Shown here: positions 1,689 to 4,579 of the stretch, piece by piece
Position numbering within the stretch: position 1 is the stretch's first letter
How the letters are laid out: each line of letters begins with the position of its first letter
Origin: a virus
Lineage: Duplodnaviria > Heunggongvirae > Uroviricota > Caudoviricetes
Length of the DNA stretch: 4,639 bases
Direction: 5' to 3' (one strand)
Virus record (IMG/VR): IMGVR_UViG_2734482591_000017
Program-made: the position numbers and the translations under genes
The notes under the pieces: generated by a model
Told to the model about the DNA's origin: nothing
Databases searched by the model: none
The model's input: the letters and a program-made list of their open reading frames with translations, nothing else

Positions 1689-2543
1689 ATGAAACTGGAA
1701 GATTTACCGAAATACTACTCCCCAAAATCCCCTTGCCTGACCGATGCATCGGCCTCAACGTCAAAAGATGCGCTGAGTATCACTGATGTGATGGCCGCGC
1801 AGGGCATGACACAGAATCGGGCTGAGATGGGGTTTTCTGCGTTCCTGGGGAAAATGGGCATCAGTATGAATGACAGGGCGCGGGCAACAGAATTACTGGC
1901 AGATTATGCACTCAGTCGGTGCGATCGTGTGGCGGCGTTGAGAAAACTTCCGGCAGAAATAAAACCGGTAGTGATGCGCATTATGGCTTCGTACGCTTTT
2001 GAGGATTATGCCCGCAGCGCAGCGAGTAAAAAGCAGTGCCCTTGTTGCTATGGGGAAAAATTTATTGAAAGCGTAGTTTTTACAAACAAGGTCCAGTATC
2101 CGGATGGTAAGCCGCCGGTATGGGCAAAGTGTACGAAAGGTGTGTATCCGTCTTACTGGGAAGAATGGAAAAAAGTCAGGGAGGTGGTAAAAGTTGCCTG
2201 TCCGGAGTGTGGCGGAAAGGGTGAGGTTTCCACCGCCTGTAAGGATTGCCGTGGGCGTGGTGTCGCCATTCATCGTGAAGAGTCGGTAAAACGTGGTATG
2301 CCTGTTATCAGAGACTGCCAGCGTTGTGGTGGTCGTGGCTATGAAAGACTACCATCAACGGAGGCATTTAATGCTATATGCGAGGTGACAAACCAGATAA
2401 CACGCGCGTCATGGGAAAAAACAGTTAAGAAATTCTATGATGCGCTGGTGACTCGGTTTGATATTGAAGAAGCATGGGCTGAGCGGCAGTTAAAAAAGGT
2501 AACTAGGTTGATTTTTCCGGAATCTGTGGTAAATTCGTCATAA
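1689..2543 (+). CDS. Late-gene antiterminator Q-like protein (phage 82 / QuuQ-type) with DnaJ-like CxxCxGxG zinc-finger repeats; true start may lie in the N run
   Basis: First ATG after the gap (1689) gives a 284-aa ORF with repeated Cys motifs (CPCCYGEK, CPECGGKG, CKDCRGRG, CQRCGGRG). It lies downstream of rusA and immediately upstream of a promoter/terminator pair and phage tRNAs, the canonical Q position. Family assignment is from memory. Confidence 0.7.
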   Translation: MKLEDLPKYYSPKSPCLTDASASTSKDALSITDVMAAQGMTQNRAEMGFSAFLGKMGISMNDRARATELLADYALSRCDRVAALRKLPAEIKPVVMRIMASYAFEDYARSAASKKQCPCCYGEKFIESVVFTNKVQYPDGKPPVWAKCTKGVYPSYWEEWKKVREVVKVACPECGGKGEVSTACKDCRGRGVAIHREESVKRGMPVIRDCQRCGGRGYERLPSTEAFNAICEVTNQITRASWEKTVKKFYDALVTRFDIEEAWAERQLKKVTRLIFPESVVNSS

Positions 2544-2547
2544 CTAT
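2508..2547 (+). promoter_or_regulatory. Candidate late promoter pR' with promoter-proximal pause element (qut-like region)
   Basis: -35 TTGATT (2508-2513), 16-bp spacer, extended -10 TGgTAAATT (2527-2535). Predicted start is near 2542, followed by AACTAT at 2542-2547, a -10-like element resembling the lambda pR' AACGAT pause inducer. It overlaps the Q stop codon (2541-2543). Confidence 0.45.
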
Positions 2548-2583
2548 GGGCGTTTTATGCCTGACGTTAGAAGAGTTTCTACA

Positions 2584-2607
2584 ACCCGCCGCCGAGCGGG
2601 TTTTTTA
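2584..2607 (+). terminator. Intrinsic terminator (tR'-like) ending a short (~65 nt) leader RNA from the candidate pR'
   Basis: GC stem cccgc / gcggg (2585-2589 with 2596-2600), 6-nt loop, followed by TTTTTTATTG (2601-2610). Confidence 0.6.
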
Positions 2608-2645
2608 TTGCGGAATTAATTACGGACCGTTATTATTCTGCTCCC

Positions 2646-2721
2646 GGCCCTTTAGCTCAGTGGTGAGAGCGAGCGACTCATAATCGCCAGGTCGCTGGTT
2701 CAAATCCAGCAAGGGCCACCA
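2646..2721 (+). tRNA. ileZ: tRNA-Ile2 (anticodon CAU, presumably lysidine-modified); ileX/ileZ-like
   Basis: 76 nt with 7-bp acceptor stem GGCCCTT/AAGGGCC, D-arm GCTC/GAGC, anticodon loop CU-CAU-AA, T-loop TTCAAAT, discriminator A and encoded CCA. Very close to E. coli ileX as I recall it, so Ile2 is preferred over Met. Confidence 0.85.
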
Positions 2722-2820: not shown

Positions 2821-2897
2821 AGCGTTGTTAGCTCAGCCGGACAGAGCAATTGCCTTCTAAGCAATCGGTCACTGGTTCGAATCCAGTACAGCGCGCC
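2821..2897 (+). tRNA. tRNA-Arg (anticodon UCU, reads AGA/AGG); argU-like phage tRNA
   Basis: 77 nt with acceptor stem GCGTTGT/ACAGCGC (one G-U pair), anticodon stem ATTGC/GCAAT, loop CT-TCT-AA, T-arm ACTGG TTCGAAT CCAGT and encoded CCA. Confidence 0.85.
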
Positions 2898-3008
2898 ATA
2901 TTCATTCTTCCAGATTCCTTCCGGCAGAGCCTTATACTGAAATATACCTGGCTCAGGATATTGTTGAAAATATTTTATGTTTGTCAAAAATAAAAGTTCT
3001 GTTAAGTA

Positions 3009-3362
3009 TTGATTGAGTGTTTGTTATACGGTCTAATGGTTTTTTCAGCATTAAATATTTATCATTCATATGGTGTGGGTAGAGTGAATATTGATGAGGC
3101 GTCGGGGTGTTTCATCCTTAGGCAGCGTATTGATATAGTCAATGCAGCACGAGCAAAGGCCTTCAGCCGTTTGACAGTTTTGTTCTGTACTCCTGATCGT
3201 CTTTCGGGAAGAGACGTTATTATTCTGAATAGTGATGCTATACAGAGGGTTTGCGATGAGTTCATGGTTGCTAATTCAGAATTATTTGCTCTTGTTCAGG
3301 AGTACAACAGAATAGCCAGGACCTGTGGTATGGATGAACTTCGGATTACTCATCTGGGGTAG
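3009..3362 (+). CDS. Hypothetical protein, up to 117 aa; start ambiguous (TTG 3009, ATG 3036, GTG 3084), no convincing Shine-Dalgarno
   Basis: ORF track entry. It occupies the position of stxA in Stx phages but has no resemblance to Stx. Rare-codon rich (3 AGA, 3 AGG, 3 AUA). Could be non-coding or a decayed gene. Confidence 0.3.
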   Translation: MIECLLYGLMVFSALNIYHSYGVGRVNIDEASGCFILRQRIDIVNAARAKAFSRLTVLFCTPDRLSGRDVIILNSDAIQRVCDEFMVANSELFALVQEYNRIARTCGMDELRITHLG

Positions 3363-3753: not shown

Positions 3754-3790
3754 CAGCCCCTCTCCGGAGGGGCTGTTTATATTGATTTTG
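3754..3790 (+). terminator. Strong intrinsic (rho-independent) terminator, plus-strand orientation
   Basis: Perfect 9-bp GC-rich stem CAGCCCCTC / GAGGGGCTG (3754-3762 with 3767-3775), loop TCCG, then U-rich tail TTTATATTGATTTTG (3776-3790). Confidence 0.65.
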
Positions 3791-4212: not shown

Positions 4213-4405
4213 CCATAGAGCAGAATTATTTTTCTGATGTTGTTTATTGTTTATTTAAATGCAGGGTGGTTTATATCTCGTCTTGTAGTTTATCCATGCA
4301 TATCTGCTTGATAATCAGGTTTTTATTTAAGGTATGGTTTTGTGTTTTTTCTGTATTACATGTCAGGTATTTTAAAGAATTATTTTTCAGATGGTGGAAA
4401 GAACC

Positions 4406-4579
4406 ATGGCATTTAAACACTATGATGTTGTCAGGGCGGCGCCGCCGTCAGATCTTGCGGAAAAGCTGACACATAAACTGAAAGAGGGCTGGCAGCCGTT
4501 TGGTAGTCCGGTGGCCATAACCCCTTATACCCTGAGGTGTACTGGCAATAGCGGACACTACCATTTGTTCTTTTTTTAA
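4406..4579 (+). CDS. DUF1737-like small phage protein (57 aa from ATG 4406; ORF track starts at 4391), possibly the 5' part of a longer frameshifted gene
   Basis: MAFKHYDVVRAAPPSDLAEKLTHKLKEGWQPFGSP... matches the YDVVRA...LAEK...KLxEGWxPxG pattern I recall for DUF1737 proteins between Q and the lysis genes. GGTGGAAAG precedes the ATG. The ORF ends in TAA directly after a T7 run (4571-4577). Confidence 0.45.
   Translation: MAFKHYDVVRAAPPSDLAEKLTHKLKEGWQPFGSPVAITPYTLRCTGNSGHYHLFFF

Follow-up and report, generated by a model that had tools for sequence, protein, structure and literature searches.

A probable lambda-family Q late-gene cassette, with late promoter, pause element and terminator, in a lambdoid prophage remnant

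Does the end of a Q antiterminator gene, where a promoter-like sequence is followed about 60 nt on by a hairpin and a run of T residues, belong to a late-gene switch of the phage lambda kind, and why does the promoter lie within the last codons of Q? The question is raised by a virus record of the Caudoviricetes (IMGVR_UViG_2734482591_000017), of which a stretch of 4,639 nucleotides, here called the window, was analysed as a whole. In an initial annotation the region had been described as a compact late promoter with pause element and terminator, following the logic of lambda pR'/qut/tR'. The comparison with relatives presented here indicates that the window very probably holds a Q late-gene cassette of the lambda family from a lambdoid prophage, consisting of the late promoter pR', a candidate Q-binding element (QBE), a sigma-dependent pause element (SDPE) and the intrinsic terminator tR'. 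With this reading a promoter, a pause site and a terminator left blank by annotation are assigned, and the odd length of the window's Q protein (284 aa) is explained.

A Q cassette is defined by a Q gene, pR', an SDPE, a terminator and the late genes (PMC9388147). The gene located 5' of the promoter (1689..2543, plus strand) is, by protein comparison, a true and full-length Q of the lambda family. Its product matches PF03589 only (7e-55), which is the family of lambda Q (PMC9388147), and is matched over its full length by the lambda Q of the Q-loading structure (PDB 7UBM, 7ubm_Q; E=1.8e-40), residues 1-113 corresponding to lambda residues 1-113 and residues 182-273 to 116-207. Between these two blocks an insert of about 68 aa (residues 114-181, window 2028-2231) is found at the base of the zinc-ribbon arm, so that the zinc arm, which in lambda touches the QBE and sigma region 4, is enlarged. 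Two extra CXXC pairs (CPCC, CPEC) are held by this insert, and a match of Q to the DnaJ CXXCXGXG domain falls just under the cut-off (29.2 vs 32.7 bits). L268 and T272 are invariant in the aligned relatives and are the equivalents of lambda L202 and T206, which contact the flap-tip helix of RNA polymerase (RNAP) (PMC9388147).

The remaining elements were all located on the plus strand. The -35 hexamer TTGATT (2508..2513) is identical in mEp460, Evi, Stx2_EH1910 and loci L086 and L094, and is followed by a 16-nt spacer (TTTCCGGAATCTGTGG; 2514..2529), the candidate QBE by position and conservation within its clade. The spacer includes at 2527-2528 the TG of an extended -10 (TGgTAAATT), and the -10 hexamer TAAATT (2530..2535) is identical to that of lambda pR'. 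After a gap of 6 nt AACTATGGG begins, which, given the spacing in lambda, sets the predicted +1 at A2542 and consists of the putative SDPE AACTAT at +1..+6 (2542-2547) and GGG at +7..+9 (2548-2550; whole element 2542..2550). Further downstream TATG at +15..+18 (2556..2559) matches the pause-site consensus TnYG, for which a pause near +17 is predicted; at lambda pR' this consensus reads T+14 N Y+16 G+17 and sets the scrunched pause (bioRxiv 10.1101/2022.01.24.477500). The terminator tR' (2583..2609), listed by the terminator scan, comprises a stem (2583-2589/2596-2602) of seven pairs, five of them G-C, with a loop of 6 nt (2590-2595) and a free energy of -11.4 kcal/mol, as well as a T-run (2601-2606) followed by ATT. 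Since G+C hairpin and T-run cover +42 to +65, a terminated RNA of about 65-68 nt is predicted. The extended -10, AACTAT at +1 to +6 and the terminator some 60 nt on thus lie exactly where the initial annotation had placed them.

For comparison lambda 43800-45300 was searched for the pause element, and lambda pR' was found to read TTGACT-N17-TAAATT-tgactc-AACGATGGG, the window TTGATT-N16-TAAATT-cgtcat-AACTATGGG. The composite TAAATT-N6-AACNATGGG, derived from lambda pR', has a single match in the window, with no mismatch, at a chance expectation of 0.06 per window even if two mismatches are allowed. With a PF03589 Q gene and with -10, gap and pause element aligned base for base, the likeness to the lambda arrangement is stronger than had been claimed, and on this alignment the cassette is judged to be homologous to lambda pR'/qut/tR' and not merely similar to it.

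In order to place the cassette among its relatives, one genome per species was scanned with an alignment of Q, yielding about 30 informative loci from Enterobacter, Pectobacterium, Edwardsiella, Kosakonia, Mangrovibacter, Yokenella and other genera; together with three further scans of viral contigs, 87 distinct leaders across Enterobacterales were obtained. At two loci (L098 and L131) the automatic anchor for the pause element fell on the spacer AACATTGGG, and it was placed by hand instead. Almost all loci share one order: Q stop, promoter, (C/T)AACGATGGG, a short leader, and a G+C hairpin with T-run. In 70 of the 87 distinct leaders the first terminator T-run is found between +48 and +73. 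The compact layout, with about 50-75 nt of leader, is therefore the rule in the family, the 194-nt 6S RNA of lambda is the outlier, and the compactness named in the initial annotation is nothing unusual. The layout is kept 3' of Q homologues that are only 30-58% identical, in many genera, and the candidate QBE spacer is near-identical across clades whose Q proteins share 50-58% identity (L087-L093: TTTCCCGAA(T/A)CTGTGG); the QBE of lambda is likewise located by the promoter (PMC9388147). Terminator stems are often unrelated in sequence between clades and yet keep their position, as expected of a functional terminator rather than of an inherited string, and the leader from +10 to the terminator is well conserved within clades. 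Judged from the window's sequence alone the case for the module would be modest, and its recurrence 3' of Q homologues provides the strongest support. This particular variant of the cassette is present in 1235 of 5426 complete Escherichia coli genomes, and the strains that carry it include CFT073 (NC_004431.1, around 1341404-1341507).

Among close relatives phage mEp460 is 96% identical, Evi and Stx2_EH1910 are 81-82% identical. The similarity to Evi and Stx2_EH1910 stops at 2606, just past the T-run, with unrelated sequence beyond, and Salmonella phage F1055 shares only 2542-2609, that is leader and terminator. On the 3' side of tR' relatives carry a holin gene (Evi), stx2A (Stx2_EH1910) or essD (E. 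coli TK3889). These boundaries suggest that Q, pR' and tR' are exchanged as a unit, with a mosaic joint at 2606/2607.

The promoter's position inside the last Q codons, which had been pointed out as unusual, is real in the window, but it does not reflect the design of the cassette. The window allele encodes 284 aa, in contrast to 273 aa in the relatives, whose Q proteins, that of lambda included, all end ...VTR; within the window's clade the Q stop lies 5 nt before the -35. Where relatives read GGTAACTAG-GTAACAAG-GTTGATT, the window reads GGTAACTAG-GTTGATT, and the 8 bp lost (GTAACAAG) are one unit of an imperfect tandem repeat. As this loss removes the normal stop, 11 codons are added (LIFPESVVNSS) and read, together with TAA at 2541-2543, through the promoter (2508..2543, plus strand; deletion junction 2507/2508). 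The deletion allele is rare: it occurs in at most 4 of the 1235 complete E. coli genomes with the region, a count for which all sampled rows span 104 bases except the best match (96) and four genomes lie in the identity band compatible with a gap-free alignment, and in 6 of the 80 closest viral contigs. Comparison of the two alleles identifies the overlap of promoter and Q as a secondary accident, a rare 8-bp slippage deletion.

Natural variation at the pause element was recorded for 77 loci of the window's clade, in which the hexamer is AACGAT (34), AATGAT (22), AACTAT (8), AACAAT (6), AAAGAT (5), GATGAT (1) or AATAAT (1). Variation is confined to positions 1, 3 and 4, and A2, A5 and T6 occur in every locus. 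Of a -10 element sigma region 2 specifically reads two bases, -11A and -7T, whose counterparts in the pause element are positions 2 and 6. AACTAT is also found in two loci without the 8-bp deletion. This pattern of polymorphism fits a selected -10-like element, of which AACTAT would be a tolerated minority form, and backs A2, A5 and T6 as the bases of the pause element that matter.

Start site, pause, Q binding and read-through are predicted by homology with lambda. According to this model, sigma-70 holoenzyme would initiate constitutively at A2542, sigma region 2 would rebind the -10-like AACTAT (+1..+6) on the non-template strand, and the complex would scrunch and pause around +17 at TATG (+15..+18). 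In the absence of Q the complex would escape from the pause and terminate at hairpin and T-run (+42..+65), releasing an RNA of about 65 nt, and the tRNA genes, morons and lysis genes downstream would stay off; with Q on the promoter spacer, Q would be transferred to the paused complex and allow read-through of tR' and later terminators. In cassettes of this family the QBE is expected to be bound by the Q body (HTH) and the zinc arm, and read-through to depend on NusA as well as on Q. Should initiation be constitutive here, as it is at the promoters of lambda and the Shiga toxin (Stx) phages, an RNA of about 60-65 nt that annotation lacks would be produced in a large share of E. coli strains. 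Late promoters of lambda, 21, phi80, 82, P22 and Stx phages have been reported to give short terminated RNAs, among them the regulatory StxS (PMC7547250), and it is reasonable to regard the predicted leader as an RNA of the 6S/StxS kind.

Several observations weigh against the reading of the region as a lambda-family cassette. With 8/12 matches to consensus, pR' remains below the minimum of the simple promoter scan (9/12) and is not listed by it; the call was retained on homology to lambda, not on consensus score. In the window terminator-like sites number 5 against an expected 4.1, which is no enrichment, promoter-like sites show none over shuffles, and the leader (2542-2608) folds at -19 kcal/mol with a modest gain over shuffled sequences (z = -1.59). 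The spacer is only loosely similar to that of lambda, so that the predicted QBE is assigned by position and within-clade conservation alone. In lambda, moreover, a -35-like TTGACT is found one base 5' of the pause element, at which place the window has TCGTCA (3/6 matches). In addition, the cassette lies within a remnant, and the 11-aa tail of Q directly follows the C-terminal helix, which in lambda makes contact with RNAP; neither a functional Q in this genome nor its supply from an early promoter can be taken for granted. As to transcripts, the Term-seq supplements of PMC7815308, whose tables may be incomplete and in which so short an RNA may be missed, list no 3' end near 1642361 or 1642422 at Qin of E. 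coli K-12, where a counterpart of the cassette is located, and only an antisense 3' end in ydfT. A literature search found no expression data for the cassette or for this K-12 counterpart.

The surroundings of the cassette bear on its present state. Fragments of IS2 and IS21 occupy positions 1-1000, and similarity to relatives is lost at about 4535, inside a truncated DUF1737 gene (4391-4579, plus strand); the window is thus a piece of a lambdoid prophage that is a remnant in this genome. The IS2 end with the orfA region occurs twice (about 385-541 and 788-944), on either side of a 3' fragment of IS21 istB (543-730), and the break at about 4535 marks an insertion or rearrangement. A RusA-type resolvase gene starts at 1322 (open reading frame (ORF) listing and Pfam); a run of 250 N at 1427-1676 hides most of rusA as well as the stretch just 5' of the Q start codon. 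On the other side of tR', on the plus strand throughout, the first gene is a tRNA gene with CAT anticodon (2646..2721; ARAGORN, Rfam 72.5 bits), annotated as tRNA-Ile in the RefSeq entries of relatives, followed by tRNA-Arg (TCT) (2822..2898; ARAGORN, Rfam and RefSeq annotation of relatives), by an ORF of 117 aa (3009-3362) that is annotated in relatives as the anti-adapter IraM, a late-region moron, and by a full-length match to the small RNA (sRNA) gene STnc100 (RF02076; 3595-3784; Rfam 132 bits, E=5e-30). The STnc100 gene, situated within the late region, has a strong terminator of its own (3754-3775).

Among the alternatives the one that survives best bears on function in this host and does not conflict with a lambda-family cassette: pR' and tR' would be genuine by descent but would have become an intact-looking fossil, which no longer acts as a switch here and from which at most the short leader RNA is made. 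We take this to be a serious possibility, somewhat short of an even chance. It is favoured by the IS fragments, by the absence of the DUF968/ydfU-like gene found 5' of rusA in relatives, and by the content of the window 3' of tR', which apart from the tRNA genes, the IraM-like ORF, STnc100 and the truncated DUF1737 gene includes no lysis genes. The pause element is a minority variant, and the frameshift-like tail of Q follows residues in contact with RNAP in lambda Q; since the residues just before the C-terminus of lambda Q refold and touch the flap-tip helix (PMC9388147), the tail could affect function. On the other hand no damage is seen in promoter, pause element or terminator, AACTAT retains A2 and T6 and is shared with the two deletion-free loci, and the prophage of E. 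coli TK3889, with the same elongated Q, still has its lysis genes (essD) downstream, so that the tail need not inactivate Q. Furthermore the window ends too early for the region far downstream to be judged.

The leader itself may contribute a structure that is common to the family. Some 20 nt beyond the pause element lies a conserved (T)CGTT with which its RNA copy could pair, and in lambda AACGA could likewise pair with UCGUU (+1-5 with +19-23). Folding and comparison point to a possible 5'-terminal RNA hairpin in the window (+1..+27; 2542..2568, plus strand) that includes the pause element; +1..+30 folds as (((...((((((...))))))...))) at -6.3 kcal/mol, the hairpin being weakened by the change of G4 to U. 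Leaders of the commonest class can fold their first 27 nt into a hairpin of 9-10 pairs whose loop holds the pause site, and in the 27-nt class T15 is nearly invariant and T17 invariant. Pairs were counted in this gap-free class only, because MAFFT put the CGTT partner in inconsistent columns where loops were unequal. In an alignment of 46 leaders 95.2% of cells are paired, compared with 28-47% when partners are slid; changes in the 3' arm almost all keep G-U or A-U pairs, and at column 23, which is unpaired, each of the four bases occurs. The minimum-energy fold contains a 5'-terminal helix in 73 of the 87 leaders vs 19.9 +/- 3.4 after shuffling, and compensated changes were found in Pectobacterium (AACAA/UUGUU), Yokenella (AAUGA/UCAUU) and the viral contig L373 (A4-U24).

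Two results count against such a hairpin. The column-shuffle control was not significant, as the pause element dictates the 5' arm, which hardly varies, and the variants AACAAT, AACTAT and AATAAT in the window's clade are uncompensated. Compensatory evidence is thin, and given the outcome of the shuffle control the hairpin is reported here as a possibility and not as a finding. Only tentatively, then, and with the balance leaning towards the negative, may it be proposed that in lambda-family Q cassettes generally the first 23-27 nt form a selected 5' hairpin, in which the 5' arm is a copy of the pause element (AACGAUGGG) and the loop holds the pause site. In that case the hairpin would be a functional part of the switch, which could shield the 5' end of leader and late mRNA from decay, and could also prevent the leader from competing with the terminator hairpin and so lead to tight termination at about 65 nt in the 'off' state. 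No mention of a hairpin of this kind was found in the accessible literature.

It appears unlikely that the terminated leader of about 65 nt is, like StxS, a trans-acting regulatory RNA under selection and not a by-product of the switch. StxS does arise from the pR' of Stx phages, and promoters controlled by antitermination have been proposed as a general source of sRNAs (PMC7547250); the 3' end of the leader, a hairpin with U-run, is the usual Hfq-binding module, and the within-clade conservation between +10 and the terminator would suit a selected RNA, although it may reflect recent common ancestry only. Yet no Rfam family scores above threshold on 2542-2608, the leader differs freely between clades outside the 5' hairpin and the terminator, and a search for data on expression, Hfq binding or targets found none.

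Far less credible is a coincidence, in which a promoter-like string happens to lie beside a terminator that ends the early (Q) transcript. The promoter score below the scan minimum, the number of terminator-like sites, which is no higher than in shuffles, and the low folding z of the leader would agree with it; the base-for-base match with lambda pR' and an arrangement kept after divergent Q homologues in many genera do not, and the comparative data already contradict it. The least credible explanation, a leader-peptide attenuator, would draw on the ATG at +5, which opens an ORF of 45 aa through the terminator (2546-2683), and on a weak match to the Trp operon leader (Trp_leader, RF00513; 2503-2609, plus strand; 25.7 bits, E=0.044), but the latter is far under the gathering score of 41 and was rejected as a chance match to the terminator hairpin, and the ORF was rejected as well, since its ATG belongs to the conserved AACGATGGG, it has no ribosome-binding site and no regulatory codon runs, and its frame is not conserved (lambda has a stop after 2 codons, L087 after 11).

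The lambda-family cassette, as the preferred reading, can finally be compared with known systems. With lambda pR'/qut/tR' the window shares a homologous Q, an identical -10 (TAAATT) separated in both by 6 nt from +1, a pause element of the form AAC(G/T)ATGGG at +1..+9, in which AACTATGGG and AACGATGGG are one base apart, TnYG at +15..+18 (+14..+17 in lambda), an intrinsic terminator, beyond which relatives of the window carry late genes, and a possible 5' stem. Differences concern the leader, of about 65 nt in the window and 194 nt in lambda; the spacer, which is of 16 nt with a TGn extended -10 in the window and of 17 nt in lambda and whose sequence (QBE) differs; the -35, TTGATT instead of TTGACT, which starts 42 nt past the Q stop in lambda, 5 nt past it in the window's clade and inside Q in the window itself; the insert of about 68 aa at the foot of the zinc arm of Q, which brings in two further CXXC pairs; and the tRNA genes after the window's terminator. 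Phages 21 (PF06530) and 82 (PF06323) have Q families unrelated to that of the window, and their QBE placement and pause positions (+18 in 21, +25 in 82) differ. What they have in common with the window is the succession of Q gene, pR', sigma-dependent promoter-proximal pause, terminator and late genes (PMC9388147).

The pR'-StxS-tR' region of Stx phages (Sp5/Sp15, O157:H7 Sakai) resembles the cassette in that a constitutive late promoter is terminated nearby in lysogens, giving a short RNA, and in that tRNA genes of the ileZ/argN/argO type and morons are found between tR' and the lysis genes (PMC7547250). It differs in its primary transcript, since StxS is made as 258 nt and processed by RNase E to 74 nt (PMC7547250), and no sequence similarity to StxS was seen in the leader of the window. 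The counterpart at Qin of E. coli K-12 (L151; NC_000913.3 1642361-1642460, minus strand), a site for which no annotation or characterisation of promoter or terminator was found, follows ydfT (quuQ), a lambda-family Q ending ...KVTR, and reads TTTGCA-N18-TAAAAT-N6-AACGATGGG, with a leader of the 27-nt 5' hairpin class and a hairpin with T-run at about +60, from which an RNA from 1642422 to about 1642361 is predicted. Its Q is about 41% identical to the window Q (L108/L110), its promoter lies about 30 nt past the stop, and its spacer has another sequence. While the Q cassette as such is textbook knowledge, the version in the window is a previously uncharacterised and very common member of the lambda family.

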